DNA from: a virus
Lineage: Duplodnaviria > Caudoviricetes
Virus record (IMG/VR): IMGVR_UViG_3300003885_000004
Coordinates: 1 to 52,649 of that record
Reading direction: 5' to 3' (one strand)
DNA: 52,649 nt
The notes below the pieces were generated by a model. It saw only the letters and a program-made list of their open reading frames with translations, was not told the origin of the DNA and ran no database searches. Shown here one piece after another: positions 4,019 to 46,405 of the stretch. Made by a program: the position numbers and the translations under genes. Numbering within the stretch: position 1 is the first letter of the stretch; every line of letters begins with the position of its first letter.

Positions 4019-4019
4019 G

Positions 4020-18052: not shown

Positions 18053-18253
18053 TTAACGTAGAGTATTTTTTGCCATTATACCAATTGTCTCGGACAATTG
18101 GTGTATCTCACTAATTGGGACTAAGTCCACTGTGGTCGTACCTTTCTCTCTTAATATTACACTGATGGCTTTGTATTCATTACAATATTCTATTTCCAGC
18201 GTCCCACCTTGTTGTTTCAAAATTCTTATCATCGCTTCCCAATTTTCATCCAT
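18053..18253 (-). CDS. hypothetical protein
   Basis: Fills the gap in the operon. Confidence 0.55.
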   Translation of the reverse strand: MDENWEAMIRILKQQGGTLEIEYCNEYKAISVILREKGTTTVDLVPISEIHQLSETIGIMAKNTLR

Positions 18254-19104
18254 ACGAATAGTCCCATAAGTGTTAGAAGTATTAGGTGTGTAATAGTACT
18301 TGGTTCCGGTACTGCTACTAAGACTGTAGGATAACCCTTACCCCAGTTAACAGCTAGTTGATGCAGGTCAGCGGTGCTAATAAATCCATCCCTAGTGAAG
18401 TCTCCTTGGTCCCAACCGCCATGTTGCTGCCAACTGGTCCCTATGGTGTTCAGGTCAACTGCATTCACTAGACCGTCTCTGTTAGCATCACCCTTGACAT
18501 AGCCTAAGTCTAAACTGTCTAGGGTAATGTCTATTGTAGGTCTTTCTGCCCAATACGGCCTATCAATGTCACTCTTCAGTATAAACCTAGTAACTCCGTC
18601 CTCTAGGAAATCACCAGTTACCAAGGGCAAGTCTTGCAGATAGATCAGAGAGTCATCCCAGACAATATCGGCATCCTTTCTATCGGCAATAGATAAGAAT
18701 GTTGAGAACGTATTCTCTGGCTCACCTGACGATACTAGATTCCATGACCCAACTGCAATACTGTCAAAGGTTGTTGGGGGTGCTGGGCAGCAATCTACGT
18801 AATCATTAGCTATGAAAAGAGCTGTCTCTCCGTTACCTGCATAGGTGAGTGTATCATCTCCAATCGTAGCTCCAAAACCTAATGGGTCACCAGTTACAGA
18901 ATCAATAGAGAACCACCCAGATACATTGTCACCCTTTCTGGCATGTAACATCATGCTATCCGGCCTACCTGTATTGTTAGCAATTTCTTTAACAATGCCT
19001 GTGAAATTGTACTTTACTGGTGATGCAGTCGACATTGATACCAACAATGTTATAACTGTTGCTGCTTCCACGACTCTTCTTGTTGTTTTTCCCATTCTCT
19101 GCAT
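18229..19104 (-). CDS. secreted dockerin-like (EF-hand) domain protein with PEP-CTERM sorting signal
   Basis: Signal peptide; GDANRDGLVNAVDL...GDFTRDGFISTADL; C-terminal VPEPS + TM helix + KIGKR. Confidence 0.9.
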   Translation of the reverse strand: MQRMGKTTRRVVEAATVITLLVSMSTASPVKYNFTGIVKEIANNTGRPDSMMLHARKGDNVSGWFSIDSVTGDPLGFGATIGDDTLTYAGNGETALFIANDYVDCCPAPPTTFDSIAVGSWNLVSSGEPENTFSTFLSIADRKDADIVWDDSLIYLQDLPLVTGDFLEDGVTRFILKSDIDRPYWAERPTIDITLDSLDLGYVKGDANRDGLVNAVDLNTIGTSWQQHGGWDQGDFTRDGFISTADLHQLAVNWGKGYPTVLVAVPEPSTITHLILLTLMGLFVWMKIGKR

Positions 19105-20926: not shown

Positions 20927-21268
20927 CTAGTTTAAGTCAGCAGACGACTTAGCCCCGACTAACAGCTCCACGTACTTGTTATCTATTCTATCCCATGACA
21001 GAGTATAGAATGACTCGTGCTCCGACAAGAGAGCAGACGTCAGCCTACAGTTAGCTGTGATGTTCCCAGCGAAGACAATGAAGTCCTTTTCGTAGTCGTA
21101 CATATTCTCTTTTAGAGACTCCACACATTTAGTCTCAAAGTCAATCATGAATATGTCGGTGTCCTTAAGGTCCTTGAATAGGTACTTGATTATGCCGAAC
21201 TCAGATGCTGGCGTTATGTCTATACCGAAGACATTAGAAACTACGAAACATTTCGGTGAACTAATCAT
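20927..21268 (-). CDS. hypothetical phage protein (D.TPA..FG family)
   Basis: ATGA overlap with the helicase stop. Confidence 0.7.
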   Translation of the reverse strand: MISSPKCFVVSNVFGIDITPASEFGIIKYLFKDLKDTDIFMIDFETKCVESLKENMYDYEKDFIVFAGNITANCRLTSALLSEHESFYTLSWDRIDNKYVELLVGAKSSADLN

Positions 21269-23756: not shown

Positions 23757-26672
23757 CTAGTCAACCGTAAAAACCAGTAAAGCTTCCTCCAGATCAGTTT
23801 GACCATTTTGACCCGCATCACTAGATATAGTGAATTGCATAGTATCTCCAATATTTGGTTTCCAAAACCCTCTCGTAGGTTTACTGTCTCTAAACGTCCC
23901 TGTTCTTGTATGAGTAAAGCTAGAAAATACCGGAACAAAAAGCCTTAACCCAGTGCCAGTTGCAAGTTCAATAATGTTTCCTTGCGCATCCTGATTATTA
24001 GCAGACATTATAAACCGCCACAGTACATCAAGATTTATATCTGTACCCATATCAAAATTCGCTGTAAAGACACCTGAGACATAAGAGAATAAGGTCGATA
24101 CCTGCCCGGTATACAGAGGAGAAAATGTCCATAACATTGTTGCACCACCAGAGGGTACACTAACAATGGGTGTTGCTGTCCATATCTCTGTATAAGGGCC
24201 TTCCATAGCTACCGACTGAAGCAACCAATTAGCTCCATCATAATCATACTCCCTTGCCTCTCCACCCTGGAGCATAATTGCTGTGTCCTGTAGCTTACGA
24301 GATAGTAGGGACTCCACCTGACTGGCACTAGTCAAGGCATCTATAGTGACGCCATTAGCCCCTAGTGGAGAAGACTTCTTAACGTGAAATCTATCACTAG
24401 ACTTAGCACCTAAGGGAGTAAATATAGTTACAGCTCCAGCAGTTGGATCGGCAATTATCCAATCATTAACTGATGCTTGATAAGGACTATCAGTGTTAGT
24501 TATGTTGACCTGTTTAGATAACCAATCCACCCAGTTAGTACCATCACTCCAGGTGGGTTTATTTGTATCCAGGTTCCATATCTTTGTACCTATAGGTACT
24601 TCATTAGCAGGTGGAAGGTTAGCTACGGTTGATTCAAAGTGATCGTTAGCGCCTTGGATGACACCGGTGTTATCTTGATAGATTAGCCCTGCGTCTGGCT
24701 GGTCAACTACTGCAAAGTATTGACAACGTATTCGGTTGCCGTTATATGCTGTATGAAATAGTAAATCGCAAATAAATAGAGTTTCTGTTGACGGTAACGT
24801 AAAAGGTATCGACACCCATTGCGGCTTGCCCCCTTCAATTCGAACCGTATATTGACTGCCAGCACCAGAAAATGGAAGAAATGTCCCTGTTACCCAATCT
24901 AATACATCCCCACCGACTCTCTGCAATTGAATTCTCACAAATATTTCATAATCAGCCCAAACAAGAATGTTAACCCAGTATTTTCCGGCAACGGTACTTG
25001 TTGTATTTTGAATCCTCACTGTATTATTTACAGGTGGAACAGGGGCTGAATCAACCCAAGATAAACATACGGGCCTACCCTCTGTTACATCATGAGCACT
25101 TGCAGGATGAATACCAAAACTATCAACAAATGATTCCGTTTCAGTTCCACTAACACTCTCAAGAGCTAATGGCCGAGTCGGGATATAAGTGTCCTGAATA
25201 AGATTAGCATGATTCTTTTCTGTTACTGGAGGCAAATCACGAACACCAGCCATTTGTCCGCCAAACGGAATAATCTTATTTAGTCCAGGGTCGTTTGCAT
25301 CTTCAATTACGATCTTAAGAGATTCATGTGGTGGCATAAATATGATATTCTGTGTACACCCCTTTTCGATAACAATTTTTTGATTATCTCCTATAGCACC
25401 ACGAATATGTACAACATTACCTTGTGAATTTCGTACCACCCCGCCACTATCAGTAAAATTTGCAATCCTTATAATTTCTCTTGTATTATTCTCAGATACC
25501 ATCATCCCATCAATTAAAACATTCCCGACACCGGCTAATTTAATACCGATAGGCGTTGCCTCTGCATAGAAATTATGAATTATTTTTGAGTCGTATTTAT
25601 TCCGATCTATGGAACGTACTTCATCATATTCTATAAGCAGACCCCCAGTATCGCATTGATCCGTTCCACAATTATCCATTGTAAAAGCAGCCGAGCCATG
25701 GATATAGAATCCCCAGCCATTATGAAACTCGCTATCAATTTGCTCAAGCCTAACTTGACCAGCACCAGCTACCTCTAATCCATTTGAGCTACCATTTGTA
25801 ATATGACAATCTGATATCTTAAAATTATAGTTATTTACATAAACAACTGGATCGGCTGTTGTATTAAAATCGCGCAATCCTGAAAAGCTTACTCCCTGTA
25901 TTGATCCATTGAATAGAGGGGATGATCCAGAGGCATCTAGCAACCCTGTATTCTCTCCAACAGCAACACGCAATAAGCTATTTCTCTGCCCATCCCCTAT
26001 AATATTTCTCTGACCACCACCAATTAATAGATTAAGGTCTATTTTTTTGGTATCAAATCCCGACGGACCAGGTATATACAAGATACCACCTGCTTGGGCA
26101 GCATTTATATTACGCCCAGCGATGTATGTACTGTCTATTGCATCTTTATTATCAGTTGCATTAGTTCCTGATTCCAATATATTTAATGCCCCAAACCAGC
26201 GAATATTAACTCTTGATTGAACTATATCAATAACACCACGGTTAAGCTGATCAACATGGTCAAACAGTTTTACACCGGACCTTACTTGTCCTTTTATAAT
26301 CAACGTCCCGCCAGTAGGTACAGACAAAACCCCACTAGCACCTATGAGAGTTATCCCCTCCGAAACAGCATAGGATGATACAGCTAACGTCTCACTAACA
26401 TCAATATACAACTCCCCGTTGCCACTCATGATTGACAATGCAGTCGCGAAGTCTGGATAGTGGCTAAGCTTGTTAAGTGTATCGAACTCCCTAACATAGG
26501 CACCTGTTCCGATACCCACAGCCTCATAGTTAATAACCTCATCAAATACAGTGACACCAGAGTCATAACGGAACATATCATGCTCACCATTGATGAACAC
26601 TTTATCCCCGTCGATACTCAGGGTATATATCTTCATCTGCGCTATGGTAGGGAACTGCGCTCTACGTGCCAT
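23757..26672 (-). CDS. tailspike / receptor-binding protein with right-handed beta-helix (pectate-lyase-like)
   Basis: VNIRWFGA...DNKDAI...GILYIP...IIGDG motif; WNLDTNKPTWSDGTNW; last gene of the tail module. Confidence 0.8.
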   Translation of the reverse strand: MARRAQFPTIAQMKIYTLSIDGDKVFINGEHDMFRYDSGVTVFDEVINYEAVGIGTGAYVREFDTLNKLSHYPDFATALSIMSGNGELYIDVSETLAVSSYAVSEGITLIGASGVLSVPTGGTLIIKGQVRSGVKLFDHVDQLNRGVIDIVQSRVNIRWFGALNILESGTNATDNKDAIDSTYIAGRNINAAQAGGILYIPGPSGFDTKKIDLNLLIGGGQRNIIGDGQRNSLLRVAVGENTGLLDASGSSPLFNGSIQGVSFSGLRDFNTTADPVVYVNNYNFKISDCHITNGSSNGLEVAGAGQVRLEQIDSEFHNGWGFYIHGSAAFTMDNCGTDQCDTGGLLIEYDEVRSIDRNKYDSKIIHNFYAEATPIGIKLAGVGNVLIDGMMVSENNTREIIRIANFTDSGGVVRNSQGNVVHIRGAIGDNQKIVIEKGCTQNIIFMPPHESLKIVIEDANDPGLNKIIPFGGQMAGVRDLPPVTEKNHANLIQDTYIPTRPLALESVSGTETESFVDSFGIHPASAHDVTEGRPVCLSWVDSAPVPPVNNTVRIQNTTSTVAGKYWVNILVWADYEIFVRIQLQRVGGDVLDWVTGTFLPFSGAGSQYTVRIEGGKPQWVSIPFTLPSTETLFICDLLFHTAYNGNRIRCQYFAVVDQPDAGLIYQDNTGVIQGANDHFESTVANLPPANEVPIGTKIWNLDTNKPTWSDGTNWVDWLSKQVNITNTDSPYQASVNDWIIADPTAGAVTIFTPLGAKSSDRFHVKKSSPLGANGVTIDALTSASQVESLLSRKLQDTAIMLQGGEAREYDYDGANWLLQSVAMEGPYTEIWTATPIVSVPSGGATMLWTFSPLYTGQVSTLFSYVSGVFTANFDMGTDINLDVLWRFIMSANNQDAQGNIIELATGTGLRLFVPVFSSFTHTRTGTFRDSKPTRGFWKPNIGDTMQFTISSDAGQNGQTDLEEALLVFTVD

Positions 26673-27057
26673 CTGATATTTTCTCCGCTTTCTTCAGCAT
26701 TCTACTTATACCGAACTTAGGTATCTTTAATCCCTGCTCAACAGCATTGTTATGAACTGCCTGTACAATAGCATCATGGTTAGCCCTAACCCACCTTGCG
26801 CCATTCTGATTCATTAGTTTCTCTAGGCTTATGCAACTAGCACACTTAGTATACTCGATCCTAAGAACATTAGCCCACCACTCCATTAGATTAGTAAAGT
26901 CTGTCCCTATCCCTTTGGCTGAGCAAGGATACTTTCCATCATATCTCTCAGGAGTACCAGACAGTGTCCTACCACACGATGTACACTTAACATGGTATTC
27001 GTCTACCTGAATGAATTCACAGGTTATTACATCTTTTGTTATTGTACACTTTGCCAT
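26662..27057 (-). CDS. small Cys-rich tail-associated protein
   Basis: CTSC, GIGTD..., CASC..LE..MN pattern. Confidence 0.7.
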   Translation of the reverse strand: MAKCTITKDVITCEFIQVDEYHVKCTSCGRTLSGTPERYDGKYPCSAKGIGTDFTNLMEWWANVLRIEYTKCASCISLEKLMNQNGARWVRANHDAIVQAVHNNAVEQGLKIPKFGISRMLKKAEKISDGT

Positions 27058-27062
27058 TATAG

Positions 27063-28451
27063 CTATACAAATTCCATAATAGCATCATCATTGAACAACA
27101 TATCAGCGTCATCATTGAACACCATATTACCACCACCAGACGCTAGTGAGAAGACGGAGCCTCCGTCTCTTGCTAAAACGTATCACGTACCACCATTAGG
27201 TGTACCTAACTCCGAGACAGTATTTCCTGGGTCCTGAGGGATACCATTAACCTCCATGAAAACCGGCCCCTCATCAGGGGCATTCCAAGATATAGAAATA
27301 CTTTTACAGCTCTTTGGTATTGCAGGGGCATTATCAGGTAAAGATATATTTATCTGGGCACTACCTCCGACAATAGGCAAATCCGCTAACCTAGCATATC
27401 CCCAGCTAAAAGTTTCAAATCCAGGTTCAGCACTAGGATAAATCAACCGAGCTATGAGTCTACAATTAGCGTCTCGGCATTCAACAATAGGCCGCCCTTT
27501 GGACGGAGGAGTCATAGCATTGTCTACGTCTACACATAACGTAAGAGCACCAAATAGCTCACTAGCCCCAGATATTAAAGACTTAGGGGCCTCACAAGCG
27601 TTCATCGCCCTCTGACCACCACATGAACAGGTACAAGCACCAGAGGGTATGTCTAAAACACAACCACAAGGCGGACATGTGAGATCAGAACAACCACTAA
27701 TCCCTGTAAATCCGCCAGGTAATCCGCTAGGTAAATCTTTTGAACACTCTAAGGGACGTAAACATGTTGTACTGTACCCATCATTTAAATAAATTGGATC
27801 GTTAGTTATTATACCGGCACAAGGGGATGGCGGTACACACGTATAATTAGGCGTAACGCACTGCTCTTTGCAACCACCGGTTATTGGACCAAAGTCTATT
27901 ACGAATTCGTAAGTACCTCCAGGAGCCAAGTCAGGAGAAGTCTCGGTATTAGCAGTAAGCAGAGGAAAAGGACATTCTGGTTCAGTTGGAAATTCAAACC
28001 CTAGTGAAAACGAGGGCTGGCGTAACTCTACATTTATGTTGTTTGATCCAGGAAGATTATCATTACATACAGTAATCTTAACTCTGAAATTTGGAGCATT
28101 CGGAAATGCCGGATCACAAGGACAAAACACATCCTCTAGAGGTATGTCTAATCCAAACAAGCACCCCTGCATATTACGCCCGGAGGGAAAGTTCGCTTGC
28201 ACTTGTCCAATAGTATTAGTTATGTCGTTAAATGTACTCCAGTCTGCGCTAATCTGAGAATTACAGAGATTCTCAATCGTCATACGTTTAACTACTGCGC
28301 CAGTAAGAGGACCCCCAGCTATTTCTGCAACAAAGAAATCTGCTTGTACGCCAATATTTCTAATGCAGCAAGGGTAATGATCTCTACAGCTATCATCTCC
28401 GCAGCAATTAGTGCAAGGAGATGTATTCTTAGCCCAAGGTAGTTGTGCCAT
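27063..28451 (-). CDS. Cys-rich tail protein (30 Cys); first stop is TGA at 27183, with a probable readthrough extension to TAG at 27063
   Basis: 422-aa ORF is secure; the 39-codon in-frame extension ends 5 nt before the next ATG. Confidence 0.7.
27152..27168 (-). promoter_or_regulatory. candidate SECIS-like hairpin AGACGGA-GGC-UCCGUCU
   Basis: Apical loop 21 nt downstream of the in-frame UGA. Confidence 0.45.
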
Positions 28452-28454
28452 TGT

Positions 28455-28526
28455 ATGTCATATATGCTATGGTGTTGTGATGTTATGGTGTTATGGCTGT
28501 GATGCTGTGGTTATGGTGTTATAATG
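28455..28526. repeat. degenerate TGTTATGG/TGTGATG short tandem repeats
   Basis: Intergenic low-complexity repeats. Confidence 0.6.
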
Positions 28527-29621
28527 TTATGGCGGGCAGCAAACGACATCGACATAGGGGACGCCATCAATGAATTTGCCCTGTATACGCTGATCCATAA
28601 CAACAGGAACACCACAATGATTGTACGTTTGTATCTCTACAGGCTGACCACCGGAATCCAGTATATCTATGAAGGTCGCAGTTCCATCTAATTTCTGTAG
28701 CCTAACGTTAGGGCCAGCAGTAGTCCCGGCAGTACCACCAGGGTTTGTAGTCGGTGTACCAGCAGGTATTGTAGCTATAGTCCAACCTATAAAGCCCACC
28801 TCAGAGTTAAGAACTATTGCCATCATACCGATTCCACTATAGGAATGGCACGCAACAACTGTATCTTTTAGAATCGTCTGTGGAGAAACATTAAAAACAG
28901 GGTCTAATAGGAAAAATGGTCCTGCGGCATTTGGATCAGCCGCTTCAAAAAGAATATTACTTGCTGGCCCTCTAGCATAAATCCTTACACTACCTTCACC
29001 CATTACCAAATTTACACCATCGTAAGGTGTCAGCTCGGTCTCTACTGCGCCTAATAGTCCATTAGTCTGTGCCAAACTAACCCATACGCCCTTAACACCT
29101 AACTTAGTCTCTGAGGGAGAAAAGCATACAAATCCTGCATTACGTTCGTCTACTGAGAAACCATTAGTTCTAATTCCACACGGATACCCAATCTTAGGAT
29201 CAGGTCCAGAAAGGGAACAAAAATACCTACGACCCGGAACTATAGGATAAGCGTATCCTTCCCGATTAGCCTTTATAGGTACTTGTCCATTAGTATAATA
29301 ACTTAATAAAGAACCATCACCATTAACACTAGTGGTCCCTAACCTAGACACAAACATAGGGATAGGGTCTTTAGAATTTGTACTTGAACCAGTCCTAATC
29401 CCGAACACGCTAAAAGAGCCATAATCTTCAGGAGGCACTACAAAGATAGGGTCAGGGTCTACATATAGTTGAGTGTTTTGATATGTACCTGAGTCTGTGA
29501 CATGCCCAGCCTCTATCTTCATCTCCCTCTGTGCCATAGCCCTATAGGCATTCAAATCCTCATGTCTAATACCAAGATCGCCTTTAGAGTATTCTCGTAT
29601 TTGTGAAGGGTCTATGGCCAT
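28527..29621 (-). CDS. minor tail protein
   Basis: Position in the tail module. Confidence 0.65.
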   Translation of the reverse strand: MAIDPSQIREYSKGDLGIRHEDLNAYRAMAQREMKIEAGHVTDSGTYQNTQLYVDPDPIFVVPPEDYGSFSVFGIRTGSSTNSKDPIPMFVSRLGTTSVNGDGSLLSYYTNGQVPIKANREGYAYPIVPGRRYFCSLSGPDPKIGYPCGIRTNGFSVDERNAGFVCFSPSETKLGVKGVWVSLAQTNGLLGAVETELTPYDGVNLVMGEGSVRIYARGPASNILFEAADPNAAGPFFLLDPVFNVSPQTILKDTVVACHSYSGIGMMAIVLNSEVGFIGWTIATIPAGTPTTNPGGTAGTTAGPNVRLQKLDGTATFIDILDSGGQPVEIQTYNHCGVPVVMDQRIQGKFIDGVPYVDVVCCPP

Positions 29622-29623
29622 AC

Positions 29624-30484
29624 TTATCCATCCTCTTCTTCAACAGTTATTCCAAAACGGAATATTCGCGTCTTAGTCCAATCAGCAAGTGGATAGTTCT
29701 TAACAGCCGCTAGAGTGCCACCCTTATCGGTCACCATTTCCACATACCTGTTATCTACTGTCCGCCAATACTTGTTCCAAGTACCGGGCCTATACACCAA
29801 CCTTTGAACTACTTTTGCTATCTTCCCACCATTAGCCTTGCTCTGTATATCAATAGAAGGGTCAGAATACAACAAAGTCTCTGGAGCGGCTCCCCACCTT
29901 ATAACAGGTAGAATAAAAATATCCTTATTTACTGTACCTATAAAATCCAAATAATCATCATCAATAGGTACGGGTATTTCACTTAAAGTTCTAATAAGAA
30001 CCCAACCCGTTCTATAGAATCCCGGTGCCTCAGCAATCGAAACCTTATCGCCAAGGGTTGCTGGACCGGGAGGGTCTTCAGGATCAGCCGGCGGAACAGT
30101 TCCATTCCAATATACATGTTGTTCTGAGAGTTTAAGGAATTCAGAATTTGGCCTTACTTCCTCACGAACTAATCCGGTGAATGGAGAATTACTGTATTTA
30201 ACTGTAAGAATAGCATGTGCATAAACAATCTTTTCCCCAGTTAAGGTTTCTTCACATCCTTCAGGAACTACTGATATAGCAAAGGCCCTTGGCGGTCTAG
30301 CGAGTAATCTTGAATCTGGCCATTTTCTCCTATTATCTAATATATCCTCGACTACGTTGTTCCTTTGACTCCAGGGTGTTCTAAGGCGAACACTAGCACT
30401 AGTCGTACCTTGTACAGAGTCGAACTCCTCACGTGGAGAACCTTCCTCTTCCCACACATTAACTAGTTTTGAATAAAAGCCCAT
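29624..30484 (-). CDS. tail protein following the tape measure (distal tail/hub candidate)
   Basis: Synteny. Confidence 0.6.
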   Translation of the reverse strand: MGFYSKLVNVWEEEGSPREEFDSVQGTTSASVRLRTPWSQRNNVVEDILDNRRKWPDSRLLARPPRAFAISVVPEGCEETLTGEKIVYAHAILTVKYSNSPFTGLVREEVRPNSEFLKLSEQHVYWNGTVPPADPEDPPGPATLGDKVSIAEAPGFYRTGWVLIRTLSEIPVPIDDDYLDFIGTVNKDIFILPVIRWGAAPETLLYSDPSIDIQSKANGGKIAKVVQRLVYRPGTWNKYWRTVDNRYVEMVTDKGGTLAAVKNYPLADWTKTRIFRFGITVEEEDG

Positions 30485-30496
30485 TGTACAATATCG

Positions 30497-31735
30497 TTAA
30501 AATACAAGAATGCGTGATTGTGCCTCTGCCAACCGCTCATTTAGAGCATCTCTTTGTGACTTAGCTTGTTCTTCTTGTGTAATTCTCTCACGAGTAGCTC
30601 CCTCCAAACCTCCAATGGCATTGGTCAATTTTTCCTCATCATTCTCAATGCCTGCCTGCCTTCTTACTTCTTGAACTCTTCTATCTTCCGCAGCCTGCTC
30701 AATACTAAATGCGAAGTCTTCCAGAGGCGTAGCCAACCTTAAGTTCTTTTGTTTCTCCAACTCCTTAGTTACCTCTTTCTCTCTATTGACCCTACTGGTA
30801 TTCCCTCTCTCAGTTAATTCAAGAAACTTAACCCAATCCTGCACTATCTCATCGAATGCTTCTTGAGTACCAAACAATTGAACAATTATTGTCTGAATTA
30901 TCAGTCCGATAGCTTCCAAGATAGGCAACAATGCATTAGCTAGTATCTCTATTATACTGAGTATAGGTCGTATGATTGCAAGGACCATTTCAGCAAATGG
31001 AGCTAATGCCTGAAAAAGTTGTTCATTCAAGTTCTTAAGCCTGATGACTAGAGCATTAAGTTGTCCACCCAATGTCTTAGCTTGTGCCTCAGCTACACCT
31101 GAAAACCTAGATTCTACAGACTCAAGTATAACCTCTGCTGCCTTTGCAGTCTCACCTATTGCTACGAACCCTTCAACTAACTTTTTCTGAGACGCAGTTA
31201 ATTCAAGGCCGACTCTCTCCAATCTTTCAATACCTTTTATAGGTTGCTGTAGGGCCTTACCCAACCTAATAGTGGCACTAGTAACATCTGTGCCAAGAAC
31301 GGATGCCATGTCAAAAGCAGCTTTTGTAGCTCTTTGAAAGTTCTCTCCACTGATTTTATTGAAAGTAGAGAGCACACCTTGTACATTCAGGATTACCTCA
31401 TCCGATACAGATATGATATTCTGTAACTCTTTGGCTTGCTCTTTTAGTTGACTTGCAGTGAATCCCGAAGCATTACCTGTAGCCCTAAGAACCGACTCTA
31501 ACTGTACCTCTGCCCGTATCTGTTTGTCATACTGTGCAAACAACCTCTGGAAAGCACCTATAAGTCCATCAATAGCTCCTGTTACTTCTCCAACAGTAAG
31601 TGTAAGATGGTCTAATGCAAAACCAGCAAACCTAAGAACAGCACTCTCAGATTCCTTTAGAGAATCTAATAGGTCCTCATTTTCAGCTAACAAATGAACG
31701 ACTACACTAGCCGCAATACCTGCCACAGCAGCCAT
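30497..31735 (-). CDS. tape measure protein (short)
   Basis: AE.QL..VL.ATG.A.G.T...L...A..LQ...SDE, LGKAL..PI.G...L.RVG motifs; follows the chaperones. Confidence 0.85.
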   Translation of the reverse strand: MAAVAGIAASVVVHLLAENEDLLDSLKESESAVLRFAGFALDHLTLTVGEVTGAIDGLIGAFQRLFAQYDKQIRAEVQLESVLRATGNASGFTASQLKEQAKELQNIISVSDEVILNVQGVLSTFNKISGENFQRATKAAFDMASVLGTDVTSATIRLGKALQQPIKGIERLERVGLELTASQKKLVEGFVAIGETAKAAEVILESVESRFSGVAEAQAKTLGGQLNALVIRLKNLNEQLFQALAPFAEMVLAIIRPILSIIEILANALLPILEAIGLIIQTIIVQLFGTQEAFDEIVQDWVKFLELTERGNTSRVNREKEVTKELEKQKNLRLATPLEDFAFSIEQAAEDRRVQEVRRQAGIENDEEKLTNAIGGLEGATRERITQEEQAKSQRDALNERLAEAQSRILVF

Positions 31736-31737
31736 GA

Positions 31738-32411
31738 TTACACCTGTCTCCTAGCAACCCACTTATTAGGGGTATTAGCAATAGCTTTGCTCCTTTGTTT
31801 CTCTATCTCTAGCAACTTATCTATCACTATGCCATGTTCCCCAGGAGTCATCTCCCGTATTTGCTCAAACGTCCAACCACAACTAGAAGCAAGGAATGTA
31901 TACAACATCTGCTTACTATCTAAGAATTCATCGTATGATCTTTTTCTTTGTTCAAAGCTTTTCTCTTCTTTTTTTTTATACCAACAGACTCGCTAACCTC
32001 CTCCCCATTCTTCTCAGAAGCCGGAACTAGCTGATTCATTTTCACAACTAGATCATCAATCACCTCTGACTTGCTCATTTCTTCCATCAGCATATCTGAT
32101 GTCAAATTTGGATGACTTTTCTTTGCTAACTTGCATAACAAGAATGTCATACCATCAACAGTTCTGATATGTTTGAGACCTAACTCTGATCTAAAGAAAG
32201 CGACTGATGCCTCTCTAACAGCTATAGATAAGATTAGTTCTCTAGAGTCAGAAGGTAGGGTCTTAGAAGCCCTATCAGCTATGGTGATTATTCTTTCCTG
32301 TATGAAAGAATCTATCTCTGAAATAGATTCATCAGAAAGAGTAGAGAGAGTTAGGTCTAGTTCACCGATTTTGAATTGTATGGTCTTGTTACTTCGCACA
32401 TCTATAGTCAT
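31738..32411 (-). CDS. tail assembly chaperone GT (via -1 frameshift at the A9 run 31969-31977)
   Basis: -1 frame gives ...GWTFEQIREMTP...RRQV-TAA ending 2 nt before the TMP ATG. Confidence 0.8.
31920..32411 (-). CDS. tail assembly chaperone G
   Basis: Between major tail and TMP genes; slippery site near the 3' end. Confidence 0.8.
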   Translation of the reverse strand: MTIDVRSNKTIQFKIGELDLTLSTLSDESISEIDSFIQERIITIADRASKTLPSDSRELILSIAVREASVAFFRSELGLKHIRTVDGMTFLLCKLAKKSHPNLTSDMLMEEMSKSEVIDDLVVKMNQLVPASEKNGEEVSESVGIKKKKRKALNKEKDHTMNS

Positions 32412-32458
32412 AAGTGTCCCAATGTTGAAGTGTAAAAGTGTATAAAGTATTCAAAGCA

Positions 32459-33370
32459 TTAGGGGGTAGGGGTAGGCCACCAAACAGGGGTGCCTCCAGG
32501 AAAAACGATCTGTCCTGTAAGTCCCCCATTAAAAGCTTGCATTTCAAAACTCTTGTCAAACCCGACTATAGTGCTAGGAGAACTTTGAATATCCCCTTGT
32601 ATGTTGGTATGATCCTTCATTATAGCCCACTTTAATAGCCAGAATAGAGCAGCATCAGTATACATCCTAAGTTGATAATCTACCCCTGAATCAATCTCTA
32701 ATGTAGTATTAGGTCCCCCTACATTAAGAACTTGTTGCATCGTCTCTTGCCTACTCATACCAAGTGTAAAATCTATACCACCGGGTAAAGACTCCTTAGC
32801 ACAATTAGTATTACTATTTGCATATTGAGTATTAGCTGCTGTAAATGTTAGAGCCGCAGACGTTAAATTCTCTAATTCAAAGAATTCTGTAGCTGCCGCA
32901 TCAGATATCTCTATCTTAGTGGGGCAAACATCATTAACATTCACTGCTGTAGTATCAGGAGTAAAATCAGCGTCATACGCACGAGAAAGAGGGCCTATAC
33001 CTGTAAACGACACTGTATGCATCATTGGGTCCTGAGTTTCCCAATTCCAATTGACCACCACTTGGTCAATTATGATATCTCCAGTATAAATAGTACCCTT
33101 CATAGTAGTAGGGTTGTACACCCCATCATCTGGACCTAAGAAAAACTGTTGAGCAACTACTATATCCTTAGGCATCAACTGAGGTATTGCACCCAGAGCT
33201 GAATAAGTACCACTAAACCCAAATATCCCTTTGTTTCTGCCAGTAGCTCCAGCAGTATTCGACGCCTTGTACGATTTTGTCTCTCTGTTCTCACTAAGAG
33301 AAAAACTCAATACTGACGAGATACCGGCAACACTTCCAAAGTCACCAGATATGATATTACTGATACCCAT
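32459..33370 (-). CDS. major tail (tube) protein
   Basis: Synteny; beta-rich, SFTGIG motif. Confidence 0.7.
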   Translation of the reverse strand: MGISNIISGDFGSVAGISSVLSFSLSENRETKSYKASNTAGATGRNKGIFGFSGTYSALGAIPQLMPKDIVVAQQFFLGPDDGVYNPTTMKGTIYTGDIIIDQVVVNWNWETQDPMMHTVSFTGIGPLSRAYDADFTPDTTAVNVNDVCPTKIEISDAAATEFFELENLTSAALTFTAANTQYANSNTNCAKESLPGGIDFTLGMSRQETMQQVLNVGGPNTTLEIDSGVDYQLRMYTDAALFWLLKWAIMKDHTNIQGDIQSSPSTIVGFDKSFEMQAFNGGLTGQIVFPGGTPVWWPTPTP

Positions 33371-33380
33371 AAGTATATCC

Positions 33381-33920
33381 TTAAGGTAATTCGTTAGCTA
33401 ATTGCAAAGCCACGTCAGATGTCCTAAACGACATTCCAACAACAAACCGCATTAGGTTAGCCCAACCTCTTTTTCGTACTTGTCCCTGAAGATCATCTAC
33501 TTCAGAAACTCCTACGGTATCACCCTGTATATTCACAGACGTGATAAAAGAATTTCCTTGCCATTGTAAAGAACCAAGGTTATTACGCCAATCCACAAGA
33601 GTACCGAAGAGCATCCATTGTACTTGAGCTAAGAATTCGGTGTATCGAAAATCACCTGTAGACCCACGAACACCGTATGCAACAGCTATACTAGTAGAAT
33701 TAGATGTTGCCTTTATGTTGCCCGTTATACCCTCAGGAGCAATTAGTATCTCAGGAACATCGAAGGTAGAAATGTTGTCTTTGTGAGGGTCTCTGTCTTG
33801 ATCGTATCTTATTCGATTCCCAACTACAACTAACTTGTCAATCTCAGAACGAGCCTCTATGATGTTCCATAGCTCAGTATACACCATAGTGAACGGATTA
33901 GTTGCATAGAATTCTGTCAT
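33381..33920 (-). CDS. tail terminator / completion protein
   Basis: Synteny. Confidence 0.55.
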   Translation of the reverse strand: MTEFYATNPFTMVYTELWNIIEARSEIDKLVVVGNRIRYDQDRDPHKDNISTFDVPEILIAPEGITGNIKATSNSTSIAVAYGVRGSTGDFRYTEFLAQVQWMLFGTLVDWRNNLGSLQWQGNSFITSVNIQGDTVGVSEVDDLQGQVRKRGWANLMRFVVGMSFRTSDVALQLANELP

Positions 33921-34447
33921 TTACTCAGTTTGTTTTTCTTGGCTATCTTGTCCAAGGCTTTCTTTATATCAGTAGATAGGTCTCTGTTAAGACTTGCTGT
34001 AGGTTGTATCATAACTAACCTACGTGGATTGTTACCGATACCCTCATGGTGATACTCAGCAAGTTGACCTACAGTTATTGGACTAGCGGGGTGTTTACCT
34101 GGACCACCAACACCCACAGCTATTCCATTAGACACAAACTGTTGAAACTGCCCAGGCAATCCCTTGAATACTGGTGTAAACGCCCTAAGAAGAGTATCAG
34201 TATCCCTGAGAATTAGGTTACTACCCTTTTTGTCTCTTGTACTCTTAGACGTTTTTCTCCAGTTACCACCACCCCTAGAAAACTTCTTAAAACGAACAAA
34301 AAGAAACTTCCTATACTTCTGCGCCCACTTTTCGTATACACCTTTGAATTCAGCAGTACCTTTACGCAACTCTTTCGTTACAGCCTTTTCGTACCTCTTC
34401 CATCCTGTAAGGTTATTTGTAACGTTAGAATCAATAAACTTAGCCAT
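33917..34447 (-). CDS. virion morphogenesis protein (Mu gpG-like neck/tail completion)
   Basis: GG.W...S.ST...K....ILRDT..L, A.YH.EG; start ATG 34447. Confidence 0.7.
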   Translation of the reverse strand: MAKFIDSNVTNNLTGWKRYEKAVTKELRKGTAEFKGVYEKWAQKYRKFLFVRFKKFSRGGGNWRKTSKSTRDKKGSNLILRDTDTLLRAFTPVFKGLPGQFQQFVSNGIAVGVGGPGKHPASPITVGQLAEYHHEGIGNNPRRLVMIQPTASLNRDLSTDIKKALDKIAKKNKLSK

Positions 34448-34452
34448 TGTAA

Positions 34453-35499
34453 TTACGCACCCATACGGACTTCCACGATGCAAGCAGGTCTCTGGGTAAC
34501 AAACATCGGGTTTGAATTAGTATGCAAGTCCACACGGGTATTCCACTTGTCCCGTGTCTGCTTGACATAGATATCCCGACCCTTAGTGTTTACCGTCTCA
34601 ATAAACGGAGCAGGAGCATTGTATCTCTTAAATACATTGCGAGTACCAATAGGAAATACATAAGCAATGGGATCACCAGGAACAGTCGGATGCTCGATAT
34701 ATGCAATATCGGTAACCGTAAGCCCCGACTCAACTGACCGCACATTCCGGTACTCTTCCCACATAATACCGTGGATGTCTACCGAATTGTATGCCTGTTG
34801 CTCACGCAAGAATTGACCGTCCTGCCAACGAGCATAAGCTTCTTTGACACCAATATGAGCAGCAAATAAGTCCATGAAACCTTCGTTGCAAAACGCATGC
34901 ATTCCGGTAAAGGATTCACCACCTAGAGCATCAATGATGTGCCTACGTGCTTGCATTGCGACTGTCTTAGGCCCATCCAAATCGACTGCGCTAATGGTAA
35001 GAACCTTTTTAGTAATACCAAATTGGGTAAACCAATCAGTCACCACCGTGCCATCAGCATCAAGAATCTGGCCACTAAGACATTTAGCCATGTGCCATTC
35101 CCAAGTAGCACCTTGGTCTGCCTTTAGTTGTTCCAACTTATCTGCAACCAGAGTAGAGACAGCCTCCATCTTGCCAGCAGAATTAAACTGACGAATGTTT
35201 GCCACATCATCTGCCATGATAGCATCATTCTTTGGCAAATGCGGAACCTCAAACAGTTTTGCTGTACGAGTACGAGCAGTGTCATACTCAGGCATAGCAC
35301 CTCTAGCTCCAATAGGAACTAGGGTAAGCTTACCTCGCCGTTCCTCTATCTTTACAGTGGTGTTGAATACACCCTCTGTACGAAACAGATTCATACCGCC
35401 AATTCTACCAGGGACATAGGGTAGCTTGTCTATACCCTCTGTCAGAGAGACCATACCAAAAGCGTTGCTATTAAATACATCAAGAACTGAAGCGGCCAT
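34453..35499 (-). CDS. major capsid protein (lambda gpE-like, HK97 fold)
   Basis: DVF.S.AF...SLT..I.KLPYVP.RIG...LF, T.EW....L.G.ILDADG, APA..IETVNT.G, SNP....RP. Confidence 0.92.
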   Translation of the reverse strand: MAASVLDVFNSNAFGMVSLTEGIDKLPYVPGRIGGMNLFRTEGVFNTTVKIEERRGKLTLVPIGARGAMPEYDTARTRTAKLFEVPHLPKNDAIMADDVANIRQFNSAGKMEAVSTLVADKLEQLKADQGATWEWHMAKCLSGQILDADGTVVTDWFTQFGITKKVLTISAVDLDGPKTVAMQARRHIIDALGGESFTGMHAFCNEGFMDLFAAHIGVKEAYARWQDGQFLREQQAYNSVDIHGIMWEEYRNVRSVESGLTVTDIAYIEHPTVPGDPIAYVFPIGTRNVFKRYNAPAPFIETVNTKGRDIYVKQTRDKWNTRVDLHTNSNPMFVTQRPACIVEVRMGA

Positions 35500-35550
35500 A
35501 GTGTATCTCCGTACAAAGGATATTTGTTTGTGAATTACTGAATTGCTGAA

Positions 35551-35976
35551 TTATGTGACTTGTTCGCTACCCATAGCACTCTTACCTGGACGAGAGATAA
35601 TCCCTACAGCAGCAAGAGCAGTAACTATAGCTGCAATATCTAGACCGCCACCCAATGGGTCAGTTACACTTAGGGCAGATTCCCAAATCACACCACTTCT
35701 AGCGAGAATGGGATACAACTTCGTAGTCTGTCCAGCAGCGGCAAGAGTAACGATTCCCTGCTCTGCAACAATACCATTAGCTGCTGCTTCGCCAGCACCT
35801 TCAACCAATGTTGCAACACCAGCAGCAACAGCAACAGGTCTACCGCCGATTTCAACATCGGTATACAGACCACCACCACCATTCCTCAGAACTGCTTCAT
35901 CCAGAGAGTATTCTGAACTCTCAAAATACTTTACAACGTCCCCTGCCACTTTCCCCTTAACTAATGATGTAGCCAT
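35551..35976 (-). CDS. head decoration protein
   Basis: GDVVKY....YS, C-terminal AL.A.GII; lies between protease and MCP. Confidence 0.75.
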   Translation of the reverse strand: MATSLVKGKVAGDVVKYFESSEYSLDEAVLRNGGGGLYTDVEIGGRPVAVAAGVATLVEGAGEAAANGIVAEQGIVTLAAAGQTTKLYPILARSGVIWESALSVTDPLGGGLDIAAIVTALAAVGIISRPGKSAMGSEQVT

Positions 35977-36033
35977 CCTTTATTCCTCTATGTTTGGTAC
36001 TTGATGTTTTGAAACTAGCTAACTAAGAAGCCA

Positions 36034-37158
36034 TTAAGAAGCCATAGCCTTAGCACGCTTCTCAACTTCGGCTGCAAAGACATTCTTTGTTGGGTCACTG
36101 ACGTCTGAATTTGAGAGTGTAAGTGAATCCCCACGGTTCTGAGGACGTGTCTCCCCATTCTCGTCTGTGAATAGAGTCTCTGATAGGCCCAACTTCTCAT
36201 TTTTCACCCACCACTCAAAGTCATCGGTACTAGACTCAGAGGATAAGGAAAGAACCATGCAAGGCTTTGAACAATACTTATCACTAGCATTCTTAGCCTG
36301 CGCAGAACTAATGAAACCTTCACGAAGAAGATCATCAATCTTGTGCTGACGATTCTCAGTACCCATACCAAGGATGCTTGCAGAGATAACCGGCAGGTTC
36401 TTCTTTGCAGGAATTTGTTTGGTTAGACTCTCAACTTCCTTCTCCAAGAGAGAAGTTTTTTCTTTCAAGGAAGAAGATTCTTTTTGCAAAGAAGAAAAAG
36501 CACCAACAATTCCTTCGGAGGTAACCTTGTCATCTTGCTTTTCCTTAACCTCTATACCTAGAGACTTAGCAAGAGCCGATAGTGAAATTGTATCTGCCAT
36601 GTCAATATCCTTACTTTTGAAGAAATCTTTAGTGAAAACGGGAGTAGCATTAAGACTTGCAGCAATCTCTGTAAACTTATCCATACCAGGTAAGACGGGA
36701 TAGTTAGTGAAAGCTACATGGGTTATTGGCAAGTGGTGGTGTTTTTTCTTAACAGGAGTTATCATCTCCCGTTCTACATAGATTGAAGTTTGAGAATCGC
36801 ATAAATCTCTTGCCGCAGTTTCATTCTTAAACTTAACCTTTCCAAACAGACCAACGCGGCCTTTTGAATCCGTCTTTTTAAAATATGATAACGCTGTAGC
36901 CCTTTTCTTCTCTGGATTGTCTTTATTGATATGCTCCAGAGGCATGGGAACCTCTATATGCTCAGACAACAGAGAATCTTGAACATCAACCCAATGGTCT
37001 ATAGCTTGCTCCGTTATTTCAAATTCAATGTCATCAGCAGCTTTGTAAAACTGTCCCACGTATGCGAACTGTTTATCATACACCAATGATTCATTGTCCA
37101 CCTTAGATAGTTTGAAACTATCACAATCACTAGGCGTAGGTATAATCCAATTCAGCAT
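36034..37158 (-). CDS. Mu-like prohead protease/scaffold
   Basis: VPMPLEH, THVAFTNYPVLPGM; coiled-coil scaffold C-terminus. Confidence 0.8.
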   Translation of the reverse strand: MLNWIIPTPSDCDSFKLSKVDNESLVYDKQFAYVGQFYKAADDIEFEITEQAIDHWVDVQDSLLSEHIEVPMPLEHINKDNPEKKRATALSYFKKTDSKGRVGLFGKVKFKNETAARDLCDSQTSIYVEREMITPVKKKHHHLPITHVAFTNYPVLPGMDKFTEIAASLNATPVFTKDFFKSKDIDMADTISLSALAKSLGIEVKEKQDDKVTSEGIVGAFSSLQKESSSLKEKTSLLEKEVESLTKQIPAKKNLPVISASILGMGTENRQHKIDDLLREGFISSAQAKNASDKYCSKPCMVLSLSSESSTDDFEWWVKNEKLGLSETLFTDENGETRPQNRGDSLTLSNSDVSDPTKNVFAAEVEKRAKAMAS

Positions 37159-37234
37159 AGCACACTCCTCTACTATCTATATACCGGTTTTTCACTGAAA
37201 TTGACAAACCATTTTAATAATTAGTCAAAGCACC

Positions 37235-38242
37235 CTAGACTGCTAGTGGAGTAGTTTTCCTTAGTACAGACTTACTAGGATCGAACCTGTATCTTCTAAC
37301 CATTATTCCATCAATAGTCTTATCTACCTGATCTCTATGCCACTTAAGAAGATCATTTTTAGGGTCAGCATTGGTTGGTCCACGACATTCATACAACAAA
37401 GCACCAGTTAACCTAGCGGATAAATCAACCAGTATTCCTTCGTATGGCTCCACAATGAAAGGTATCTTGTAAGGTCCCGCCCGCATCCTGCAATTGATCT
37501 CATTATCAGCTAGGTCAATAAACTTATCTATCCTAGTATCAACCTCACTAGTAAGTTTATTATTGTTTAAGTCAGCCCATTTGACAATGTTAGTTAGTCC
37601 GTATATAGCTTCAACATCAGATTTGACACAATAACGATTAGGTTGTACATCTTCGTCTAATGTACCACCAGATATTATAGTCACACCATTCGCAGCGGGG
37701 ATATGTGTCCTCACTGTACTAAGAGCATAGTCTAGTCTCCATTTCCTAGATAGTATCCAATTGATAACCTTATCCACATAGTCTCCATGCCAATTCAATT
37801 CATGTTTTTGTTCTGCGGAATCAGTTATACCTCGATGTTCATAGAGTAGAAACCCTGCAAGTCTAGTTGACAAGTTAATTATAGTTCTCGGATACGGGGG
37901 TACAAAAGGTACTTTATATGGGCCATCCCTTAGCTTAGCATCAATGATGGAATCTGCTTTAACCATCATCGCTATCATTCTGGCACGTTTGGCAGTAGAA
38001 TTCTTAGTATTATCTAAGTCTGCCCATATATTTACATTGTTAATGCCAAATAGGTTATCTAGCTCAGCTTTAGAAGAGTACCTATCTATGGTCTCTAACT
38101 CTATTTCACGATAGAGACCAAGAAGATCGCTTAGATCGGGCTCCTGAAAAGTTATAGCTGGAGCGATAGGTATTGGAAGTAGAGTATTGATACTCCCGAA
38201 ACTGAGCATAGAGAATAAATTCTCTTTTGTATCAAGAGCCAT
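37235..38242 (-). CDS. head-tail adaptor with two tandem Mu gp36 (DUF1320)-like domains
   Basis: Two copies of RY....L...(F/Y)G..N...WADL.N...AD..I...GPYK.PF...LS.RL.G.LLYE.RG. Confidence 0.75.
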   Translation of the reverse strand: MALDTKENLFSMLSFGSINTLLPIPIAPAITFQEPDLSDLLGLYREIELETIDRYSSKAELDNLFGINNVNIWADLDNTKNSTAKRARMIAMMVKADSIIDAKLRDGPYKVPFVPPYPRTIINLSTRLAGFLLYEHRGITDSAEQKHELNWHGDYVDKVINWILSRKWRLDYALSTVRTHIPAANGVTIISGGTLDEDVQPNRYCVKSDVEAIYGLTNIVKWADLNNNKLTSEVDTRIDKFIDLADNEINCRMRAGPYKIPFIVEPYEGILVDLSARLTGALLYECRGPTNADPKNDLLKWHRDQVDKTIDGIMVRRYRFDPSKSVLRKTTPLAV

Positions 38243-41200: not shown

Positions 41201-41251
41201 TATTCTCCTGCCCTGCGTAGCAGTAGACTGTCTTAAGTAAATAGATGACAT
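38243..41251 (-). CDS. large repetitive Gly/Thr/Val-rich virion-associated protein
   Basis: 1002 aa; internal repeats TLLADNFSVFYGNANALTT, VWDAQTSLYQQ.GSTGEAL, VNV.SWAGV. Confidence 0.7.
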   Translation of the reverse strand: MSSIYLRQSTATQGRRIGPFVSDVDFKTPNDGLTIANTDVKLSKNGVASVNASAGATSDVNGMYGVSLSASDTDTVGELEVSVLVSGALVVTAKFMVVEEAIYDALYASGANGFDATGVVQANTMQILGGALGQTTADNLSANFSTFYDNGDSITSKSVDQVDNVNTWLGSPPGNLPDTALSVIQLDKLISTTVGPTDVVANSIIANMVSKSVTPVWTSFDNTTDSLEALADASGSDVNVVSWAGVAVTTPLTPGVPNVNMANIAGAPLTPPATSTLLADNFSVFYGNANALTTNTVDDVGVGVGGTNVNVISWAGVTVATPSVGGVPKVDVGYWKGLVADDPMDIFDFFTGGVPLDTSAGTISLVATTGNVSNSAPQTLDVGPIIGTGGINLNALGGMSSGMQTQIQTKTNDALVAIFLDRMFAVDYNPATPPGIATSWANELVQDNGGGVTQFTAIALANTGFSGTVDANLIEISGAPLSPPVTTTLLADNFSVFYGNANALTTSIVDDVGGGVGGTDWTATERENIRYRLGVDGTITPPITNVPNLETVSANLTQILGTVVTEPIGGAGSSGLAQNFSLFFDVNPTTIITVDDVSTHSVLDIRQDLDASSTISSRIGTANDLGGGATLFLNLNDIAGAGFDTISDSLAAGGAGLTVGQIVTGVWDAQTSLYQQPGSTGEALVAAGASSDPWPIQLPGPYIPGSAGRIISDALTSHIAQTGDSYTRIGVGGASLNDLGLMSTSMRAQVRSEVDASVATLNNFDPGVDQVIVGSMAVGSIDSSTFAVGAITSNAVNNNVSVQHRQEMDANSTQLAQVIVNVAAVPTVLQNVQGVWDAQTSLYQQLGSTGEALVAGNAPTAAQVAFAVWEEPVIDHGIIGSTGLALGQMESNIVIITGVDGATLATIQGNYAVSTVTVAEVRTEMIGALTVDVYGEPPKENPPEIASLATKIGYGYKINVNRKDQDNAKFKLWNFATTVVDQETIVTGDATSATKGKLTVGL

Positions 41252-41264
41252 TATTGTTCATCCT

Positions 41265-42059: not shown

Positions 42060-42062
42060 TTA

Positions 42063-45940: not shown

Positions 45941-45952
45941 TACGTCTCTAAT

Positions 45953-45974
45953 AAAAATGGGGCATCCGTGCCCC
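45953..45974 (-). terminator. Rho-independent terminator-like hairpin before terL
   Basis: GGGGCA-CGGA-TGCCCC-ATTTTT. Confidence 0.55.
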
Positions 45975-45993
45975 TCCCTCATGCCATACCCAA

Positions 45994-46398: not shown

Positions 46399-46405
46399 AC
46401 TTCCC

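Follow-up and report, generated by a model that had tools for sequence, protein, structure and literature searches.

In the phage genome IMGVR_UViG_3300003885_000004 (Duplodnaviria; Caudoviricetes), two genes very probably carry a UGA codon that is read as an amino acid rather than as a stop; the recoding of both UGAs is well supported. The window, which is the whole stretch of DNA that was analysed, is a complete genome of 52,649 bp with direct terminal repeats and a GC content of 42.8%, and nearly all genes of the phage lie on its minus strand. One of the two genes encodes a Cys-rich protein of the tail module, and its UGA (27185..27183, minus strand) is referred to below as site 2; the other encodes a protein with a CAP domain, and its UGA (46738..46736, minus strand) is referred to as site 1. 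The best reading of the inserted residue, at about an even chance, is selenocysteine (Sec) supplied by the machinery of the host.

The main body of the Cys-rich gene (27186..28451, minus strand) has 422 codons, 30 of them for Cys, and runs to ...PNGGT. The in-frame UGA follows at 27183..27185 and corresponds to the proposed Sec residue 423. The same frame then continues for 39 codons (YVLARDGGSVFSLASGGGNMVFNDDADMLFNDDAIMEFV; 27066..27182, minus strand) to a TAG (27063..27065, minus strand), the true end of the gene, which lies 5 nt before the ATG (27057) of the next gene. This arrangement had been described in an earlier, sequence-only reading of the DNA, and the sequence confirms it. The second gene (46406..47047, minus strand) is also split by a TGA. 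Its first part (46739..47047, minus strand; 103 codons) contains a signal peptide and a Q-rich coiled coil and ends in ...DLCPT; the UGA (46736..46738, minus strand) follows this Cys-Pro-Thr in the context ACA-TGA. The second part (46409..46735, minus strand; 109 codons) carries a CAP/SCP-like domain (PF00188, E 1.5e-5) and has no signal peptide of its own. In three homologs (P0021-P0023, 47-50% identity), the two parts form one uninterrupted protein of the same architecture. Whether the UGAs are read as Sec or passed by readthrough, the annotation should be changed so that 28451..27063 is one gene and 47047..46406 is one gene.

The evidence for translation across the two UGAs comes from a comparison with G001, a 49,439-bp viral contig (loci L001 and L003-L008) whose entire length shows synteny with the window, with a nucleotide identity of approximately 67-79%. 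G001 was the only close relative among the matches listed in the scans of IMG/VR, and a scan of JGI metagenomes gave the same contig. The locus scans of IMG/VR and GTDB used a six-row family alignment; no relative of the loci was found in the GTDB genomes, and blastn and tblastn searches of 50,697 phage records gave no close relative at the DNA level. The Cys-rich proteins of the window and G001 share approximately 80% identity. In G001, the TGA is kept at both sites, each time after a Thr codon, and synonymous sites between the two genomes are near saturation (proportion of synonymous differences, pS, 0.6-0.7; synonymous substitutions per site, dS, 1.2-1.7). A recent TGG>TGA mutation, which the sequence-only reading had listed as an alternative, is excluded by this conservation of TGA at a synonymous divergence above 1.

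The codons that follow the UGA at site 2 have evolved as coding sequence in frame 0. In the 39-codon extension, 14.5 synonymous and 4.5 nonsynonymous differences separate the window from G001, giving a ratio of nonsynonymous to synonymous substitution (dN/dS) of 0.042, with differences at codon positions 1, 2, and 3 of [5,0,14]; the dN/dS of the gene body is 0.079. The first 19 codons of the extension precede any in-frame ATG, GTG, or TTG, and their differences are distributed as [1,0,7] with a dN/dS of 0.037. Since these 19 codons are constrained in frame 0 ahead of the first possible in-frame start, they are translated by ribosomes arriving from upstream. Downstream of the UGA at site 1, dN/dS is 0.072 and the differences are [13,13,44]. 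This pattern of substitution indicates that the UGA at site 2 is translated, not obeyed, and that the codons after it are read in frame.

It could instead be proposed that the TGA at site 2 is a true stop and that the 117 nt beyond it represent a spacer, the decaying end of the gene, or a small gene of their own. Four homologs are annotated as ending exactly at this point, and there is an in-frame ATG at extension codon 20 with a G-rich stretch ahead of it. The purifying selection on the 19 codons ahead of that ATG argues against such a stop, as do the strand YVLAR..., which aligns with a matching strand in all homologs that span the site, and the acidic tail, which is fused to the protein in two lineages; the proposal is thus highly improbable. 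A tiny GTG-started gene in the +2 frame, shifting into the extension, had also been suggested. Its peptide is not conserved: the differences fall on third positions of the TGA frame, and a by-eye translation of the peptide gave 7 amino-acid differences in 19 codons.

Across the genome, eight minus-strand open reading frames (ORFs) end in TGA and have a continuation of at least 12 codons, and the G001 match covers six of them. Among these six, a frame-0 coding pattern past the TGA is kept only at the two sites. At the ORFs 9402, 33917, and 15568, the differences past the TGA shift to another codon position, as is expected where the next gene overlaps; at ORF 6395, the G001 match stops short of the region past the TGA, and the ORFs 2703 and 5600 have no match. 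A third candidate, an in-frame TGA in 4522..5373 on the plus strand, was rejected: G001 has TGG there, no coding pattern is seen, and it is the minus strand that codes. A contig built by a second assembler from run X1 is identical to the window over 27050..47049 (0 differences, depth approximately 35). Because run X1, labelled as a hydrothermal vent metagenome, may be the sample from which the window came, the contig is not independent evidence; taken together with the TGA at both places in G001, its agreement indicates that the TGAs are not assembly slips.

That so small a genome has in-frame TGAs in two unrelated genes, each in a late or structural-side module, would also fit a general reading of UGA as sense by the host or by the phage late in infection, through reassignment of the code (to tables 4 or 25) or through a suppressor tRNA. 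However, the genome has no in-frame TGA beyond these two. TGA terminates at least 13 long genes, and at 11363, 15568, 19757, 21265, 33917, and 44600 it overlaps the next start as ATGA, an arrangement typical of real stops; ORFs of approximately 1000 codons contain no internal TGA; and the four Trp residues of the Cys-rich ORF, read with code 11, are necessarily encoded by TGG. ARAGORN found no tRNA gene, and neither Gly nor Trp occurs at the homologous column. No Rfam family matched the window at the gathering score, and at E values up to 10 only chance rows of snoRNA type appeared around both sites. Ordinary TGA stops elsewhere, together with the lack of a tRNA gene and of an Rfam family, make a reassigned code or a phage suppressor tRNA very unlikely.

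The homologs of the Cys-rich protein inform on the residue at the UGA. A profile search of 1.84 billion representatives yielded 16 proteins, and the resulting alignment has 17 rows. The UGA column holds TGA in two rows (the window and G001), Cys in four (P0004 ...SDT-C-HIVAR, P0008 ...DGV-C-YALAT, P0009 ...AGD-C-WVLAA, and P0014 ...AGQ-C-YVVAR), Pro in two (P0007 and P0010), and Ala in one (P0017). Four further proteins (P0003, P0005, P0006, and P0016) terminate at ...GGT, one residue short of the column. The fragments P0011 and P0015, which are too short, and P0012 and P0013, in which the profile match stops before the C-terminal domain, were not counted at this position. Additional cluster members have Pro (P0018 and P0019, with GGT preceding it in P0019) or Cys (P0020). 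Trp was found in none of the seven homologs that span the site, and no aligned row has it; Gly is likewise absent among the spanning homologs. The Trp readthrough proposed earlier thus finds no counterpart in the family. All spanning rows conserve both the strand that follows the UGA (Y-V/A/L-L/V/I-A) and the one beyond it (G-x-x-F/Y-x-L).

The acidic tail at the end of the extension is fused to the protein in two homolog lineages, that of P0007 (also P0018 and P0019), whose C-terminus is ...QFDDDEMTFFDDIVMENI, and that of P0017, whose C-terminus is ...DDEEDMDFFDDVVMEFA. The homolog comparison that had been suggested for the FNDD-type tail therefore came out in favor of fusion, and the tail belongs to the same polypeptide as the rest of the protein. 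A conserved acidic motif, F-x-D-D-x-x-M-E-F/N, closes the protein in three lineages, those of the window (two copies within 27066..27122), P0007, and P0017; disorder is predicted for this motif, which may serve in docking or assembly.

A maximum-likelihood tree of 14 rows, from which the fragments P0011, P0013, and P0015 were left out, places the window, G001, P0003, P0016, P0005, and the Cys form P0004 in a clade with 97% support. P0006 lies outside this clade in an unresolved position, and path lengths in the tree reach approximately 2-3 changes per column. Because stop-bearing rows lie deep in the tree, a stop at the site either has been retained over long periods or has arisen repeatedly from Cys. 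Other searches added little: a word-index protein search found the proteins of the window and G001 only, the family profile added only relatives of the N-terminal domain, and the ESM Atlas gave no usable match. The Cys-rich protein has no homolog in the collection of 50,697 phage records and no Pfam or PHROG match.

The sequence-only reading had noted an ACR-UGA context common to both sites, and this holds: a Thr codon, ACA or ACG, precedes all four UGAs read from DNA (both sites in the window and in G001), at 27186..27188 and 46739..46741 (minus strand) in the window and at approximately 4273-4275 of L001 and 1840 of L004. The spacing of 21-23 nt that it gave holds as well, as the distance from the UGA to the loop of the hairpin. 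Thr also precedes the stop in P0003, P0005, P0006, and P0016, and the residue before the column in the spanning homologs without a stop is T, I, V, D, or Q. The Thr codon is absent from the model of the selenocysteine insertion sequence (SECIS); it may reflect a context that locally favors readthrough, or common ancestry together with a single coincidence.

A partner for the residue at the UGA is suggested by Cys325 (27477..27479, minus strand). Nearly every Cys column in the family is invariant, and Cys325 is the only variable one in the C-terminal domain. It is present in all nine rows that have TGA, a stop, or Cys at position 423 and in which column 325 is filled, and it is absent in all three Pro/Ala rows and in one Cys row (P0008). 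The association between the two columns has a one-sided Fisher p of 0.014 over 13 rows with relatedness ignored. That Cys325 tracks column 423 suggests a bond between the two positions, and hence a Cys-like residue at the UGA.

The structure of the Cys-rich protein was modelled with AlphaFold2 (AF2) from the 17-row alignment (mean predicted local distance difference test, pLDDT, 67; predicted TM score, pTM, 0.74). The N-terminal beta domain (approximately residues 32-190) is well modelled and the Cys-rich linkers poorly; a second beta domain, with a pLDDT of 55-89, lies at the C-terminus. Residues 422-426 form a predicted strand, with a pLDDT of approximately 81 for residues 421-430. In this model, the C-terminal jelly-roll takes its last strands from YVLARDGGSVFSL; after them comes an acidic tail with two M-x-FNDDA repeats, ending in MEFV, and residues 439-462 are predicted to be disordered (pLDDT below 50). 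In a Foldseek search (E 2e-5 to 1e-3, low TM), the whole chain weakly matched LNS-EGF-LNS and laminin LG pairs, and the N-terminal domain locally matched galectin, PL7 lyase, and LNS folds. With VIA-align (48,161 chains), residues of approximately 276-447 were matched to laminin-G, LNS, pentraxin, CBM40, and clostridial Hc-N jelly-rolls (Z 7-8.7). The best match was 2jd4_B (Z 8.7, root-mean-square deviation 3.3 over 142 residues), and a tailspike domain of phage CBA120 was matched at Z 7.2. As a lead, the product may thus have two jelly-roll domains with a Cys-rich linker between them. The aligned ranges extend beyond residue 423, so the UGA lies approximately 18 residues inside the modelled domain, and a product that stopped there would lack the last strands. 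Sequence identity to the laminin-G, LNS, and pentraxin (concanavalin-A-like) jelly-rolls is 6-13%, and two dense Cys clusters of the phage protein have no counterpart in them. These clusters are conserved across the family and poorly modelled by AF2; one comprises C13, C16, C17, C22, C28, and C29 (28364..28415, minus strand) and the other C259, C262, C264, C273, C275, and C277 (27621..27677, minus strand). They may represent metal binding or a knotted disulfide region.

Each UGA of the window is followed by a hairpin that resembles a bacterial SECIS (bSECIS). The consensus given in a 2026 review (PMC13188914) has an apical loop of 3-9 nt, an upper stem of 4-16 bp, a distance of 16-37 nt from the UGA to the loop, a G at position 1 or 2 of the loop (in most cases G followed by G or U), and a minimum free energy of -7.5 kcal/mol or lower; these constraints were coded for simple hairpins. 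The candidate at site 2, GAGACGGA-GGC-UCCGUCUU (27151..27169, minus strand), has 8 bp with one G.U pair, a 3-nt loop, and an energy of -9.7 kcal/mol, and it agrees with the model. The hairpin had been placed 21 nt after the UGA; it is indeed present, and this distance applies to the loop, the stem itself beginning 13 nt after the UGA. Under the bSECIS constraints, only 0.9% of 17518 background positions reach an energy as low. At site 1, the candidate UCUGUACA-GUC-UGUACAGA (46702..46720, minus strand) has an energy of -8.0 kcal/mol, a distance of 23 nt from the UGA to the loop, and a GUC loop, and it also agrees with the model. In G001, the hairpin at site 2 lies in the same place (GGGACGG-AGGUG-CCGUCUU, -8.0 kcal/mol, 20 nt) and again fits. 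All four loops open with G(G/U), or with A and then GG.

The bSECIS constraints are passed by 1.9% of 17518 coding-strand positions and by none of 13 ordinary TGA stops. These stops were taken from the 18 other minus-strand ORFs that end in TGA, five of which, in 400-6000, were left out because of doubtful gene calls. Hairpins pass at three of the four UGA sites and at none of the 13 ordinary stops (Fisher p = 0.006). The hairpins exceed chance expectation. The 45 nt after the UGA fold with -14.9 kcal/mol at site 2 and -13.2 kcal/mol at site 1; by criteria set after the sites had been seen, folds as stable occur in only 1.2% and 3.2% of 5843 same-strand background windows, and uninterrupted stems this good at 3.5% and 2.4% of 17527 positions, respectively. 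From its sequence and position, we infer that the hairpin at site 2 acts as a SECIS. The earlier proposal that one recoding signal is used twice is borne out in that both TGAs and their continuations are conserved in G001, both genes have fused homologs, and a SECIS-like hairpin is found at both sites of the window.

Translation across the UGA could also result from programmed readthrough, in which a near-cognate standard tRNA reads the UGA, with stimulation from the hairpin and perhaps from a P-site Thr (ACR) codon; a fixed share of the ribosomes would then continue past the stop, so that each protein would be made in a short and a long form. This is a real but less probable explanation than Sec. 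All the evidence for translation across the UGA fits it equally well. The Thr codon ahead of all four UGAs and the Thr end of the four stopped homologs hint at a local context outside the SECIS model; Pro and Ala at the column suggest that the identity of the residue is not critical; and the hairpin of G001 at site 1 is too weak for the SECIS model. On the other hand, the usual near-cognate reading of UGA in bacteria is Trp, which is found in none of the seven spanning homologs and as a bulky residue would replace Cys, Pro, or Ala beside the co-varying Cys325. The short forms appear to be non-functional, judging from the model, since the stop at site 2 would fall inside the modelled jelly-roll and the CAP domain lies wholly downstream of site 1. 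A leaky stop would then waste most of the product, and any of the seven single-base changes that give a sense codon should have replaced the TGA. Instead, both sites retain TGA at a dS above 1, and in the family a stop has apparently persisted along deep branches. The SECIS model is also matched in loop sequence and spacing.

The choice of Sec over readthrough rests on the Cys homologs, the co-varying Cys325, the hairpins that fit the SECIS model in energy, spacing, and loop at three of the four sites, and, at site 1, a Cys three residues ahead of the UGA (C-x-x-UGA). The long retention of TGA, although seven single-base changes would give a sense codon, also points toward Sec. The sequence-only reading had offered Sec in a virion protein or two tail isoforms; of these, Sec is favored by the Cys homologs, the partner Cys, and the bSECIS fit, and isoforms are weaker because the UGA lies inside the modelled domain.

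Several observations weigh against Sec. Pro or Ala occurs in three of the seven spanning homologs, which makes the residue dispensable; residue 423 thus tolerates Pro and Ala, unlike the catalytic Sec of known bacterial selenoproteins, and those selenoproteins are redox enzymes. Site 1 has no Cys homolog: in the window and G001, its UGA lies in an inserted linker segment, ...C-P-T-UGA-(TLGGQ or LSGDP)SVQSVQ, P0021-P0023 lack a Cys there, and C-P-T-UGA is an insertion in a variable linker. The hairpin of G001 at site 1 (-1.9 kcal/mol, -3.4 in a free fold; 23 nt; GUC) fails the energy threshold as a result of a synonymous T>C change, which creates a stem mismatch and leaves 5 bp; the pair is broken and not compensated. 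Among the stem changes between the window and G001, with two sequences per site, one turns A-U into G.U and two break pairs (one closing pair and one at site 1). The association of Cys325 with column 423 amounts to approximately two independent co-losses with one exception, uncorrected for phylogeny. VIA-align flags a Z of approximately 8 as a possibly "common arrangement", so the lectin-like fold is only a lead. That P0003, P0005, P0006, and P0016 have TGA as their stop codon, with an extension after it, is assumed. ARAGORN found 0 tRNA genes in the 52649-bp genome, and no family of the Sec pathway was found among the 38 products scanned against Pfam. The machinery would be that of a host with putative selA, selB, selC, and selD genes.

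If Sec is the residue, ribosomes would decode the TGA at 27185..27183 and continue for 39 codons to the TAG at 27065..27063, producing a Cys-rich tail-module protein of 462 residues. SelB of the host, carrying Sec-tRNA, would bind the hairpin at 27169..27151, whose G-G loop lies 21 nt past the UGA, and deliver Sec. A bond between residue 423 and Cys325 would anchor the last strands in the lectin-like C-terminal jelly-roll, and the acidic FNDD tail would come next. The same mechanism would operate at 46738..46736, giving a C-P-T-U motif in a secreted CAP-domain protein. Taken as a whole, it is possible, though at slightly less than an even chance, that the phage encodes two SelB-decoded selenoproteins, a lectin-like tail protein and a secreted CAP protein; that a selenylsulfide between Sec423 and Cys325 locks a receptor-binding-like domain; and that this is the first structural, non-enzymatic Sec in a bacterial virus. 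If so, Sec, Cys, and Pro/Ala forms would have been interchanged across a small but deep family of phage proteins, a proposal that is tentative to the same degree.

The position of the Cys-rich gene links it to the tail. Upstream of it lie a tape-measure-like gene (30497..31735; PF06791, phrog_27166) and then two genes of unknown function; downstream lie a gene for a protein of 131 amino acids and one for a 971-residue beta-helix protein (23757..26672). Further upstream are a head module (a Mu-type portal, a Mu gp36-like protein, a protease, and capsid E) and the terminase. We infer from gene order only that the Cys-rich protein is part of the virion, probably in the tail. The rest of the genome includes replication genes for a family A DNA polymerase, a primase-helicase, and an SNF2 helicase. 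The nearest of the 50,697 phage records is the uncultured spring phage MW202657.1, with approximately 30-35% identity in TerL, the DNA polymerase, and the primase-helicase. TerL, the major capsid protein, the DNA polymerase, and the primase-helicase share only 25-37% identity with those of cultured phages, whose hosts are diverse, and no host can be inferred from them. Other products were also observed on the minus strand. A second lectin-like protein of the phage (41265..42059; PF13385 Laminin_G_3, E 7e-9) adjoins a 1002-residue protein of unknown family. A pentapeptide-repeat protein (2854..3576; PF00805, E 4e-43) is encoded in the early or accessory region, a small protein similar to Pam3 gp32 (PF23992, E 8e-12) at 20927..21268, and a protein with a weak dockerin-like match (E 4e-4, just under the Pfam cut-off) at 18229..19104.

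Bacterial selenoproteins are among the nearest parallels. As in these proteins (for example, formate dehydrogenase), there is an in-frame UGA, a small loop that starts with G lies 20-23 nt downstream, and homologs have Cys at the UGA. The bacterial mechanism, with a SECIS in the coding region and the SelA, SelB, tRNA-Sec, and SelD of the host cell, is outlined in PMC5029168 and PMC13188914. The present case differs in that the genes belong to a phage and that a Cys-rich, lectin-like product of the tail module, with a proposed structural Se-S cross-link, takes the place of a redox enzyme.

Viruses offer further comparisons. In the RNA phage Q-beta, readthrough of the UGA of the coat gene adds a C-terminal extension to give A1, and both forms are functional. 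The two cases are alike in that the UGA of a phage structural gene is passed in frame and a C-terminal extension is gained. However, the Q-beta stop lies at a domain boundary, whereas here it interrupts a modelled domain (site 2) or precedes the sole domain of catalytic type (site 1); moreover, the present phage has double-stranded DNA (dsDNA), and two unrelated genes are involved. The glutathione peroxidase homologs of poxviruses are selenoproteins of eukaryotic viruses, captured from host redox enzymes and served by a SECIS in the 3' untranslated region. The phage would resemble them as a virus whose genes use the Sec machinery of the host; here, the SECIS would be of the bacterial type and the genes have no known selenoprotein relatives. 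Phages with suppressor tRNAs have many recoded stops in late and structural genes and carry the suppressor tRNAs themselves. The present phage shares the in-frame stops in late or structural genes, but it has two such sites, no tRNA gene, and normal TGA stops elsewhere.

According to the abstract of PMC8310308, a few viruses redefine UGA as Sec. No phage-encoded selenoprotein was found in a literature search of main texts, and the main text of the 2026 review of the prokaryotic selenoproteome (PMC13188914) does not contain the words "phage", "virus", or "viral". A search of the literature for stop-codon readthrough in phage tail genes gave general reviews of recoding only, and passages of PMC5009743 describe none. 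Mechanistically, this would be Sec insertion as known from bacteria; the novelty would lie in a phage that employs it, for a lectin-like structural protein and a secreted protein with a CAP domain, and in the Sec/Cys family itself.

In sum, if Sec is the residue, use of the 21st amino acid would extend to phages, with Sec in virion or secreted proteins rather than in redox enzymes. The infectivity of such a phage would be tied to the selenium status and the Sec machinery of its host. The tail protein would contain a natural structural Se-S bond, and a selenylsulfide should withstand reduction better than a disulfide. Gene callers would truncate such phage proteins; six of the 17 aligned family members are recorded as ending at the site. 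If the UGAs are passed by readthrough instead, they would represent a rare documented instance of conserved in-frame UGA readthrough in two genes of one dsDNA phage.

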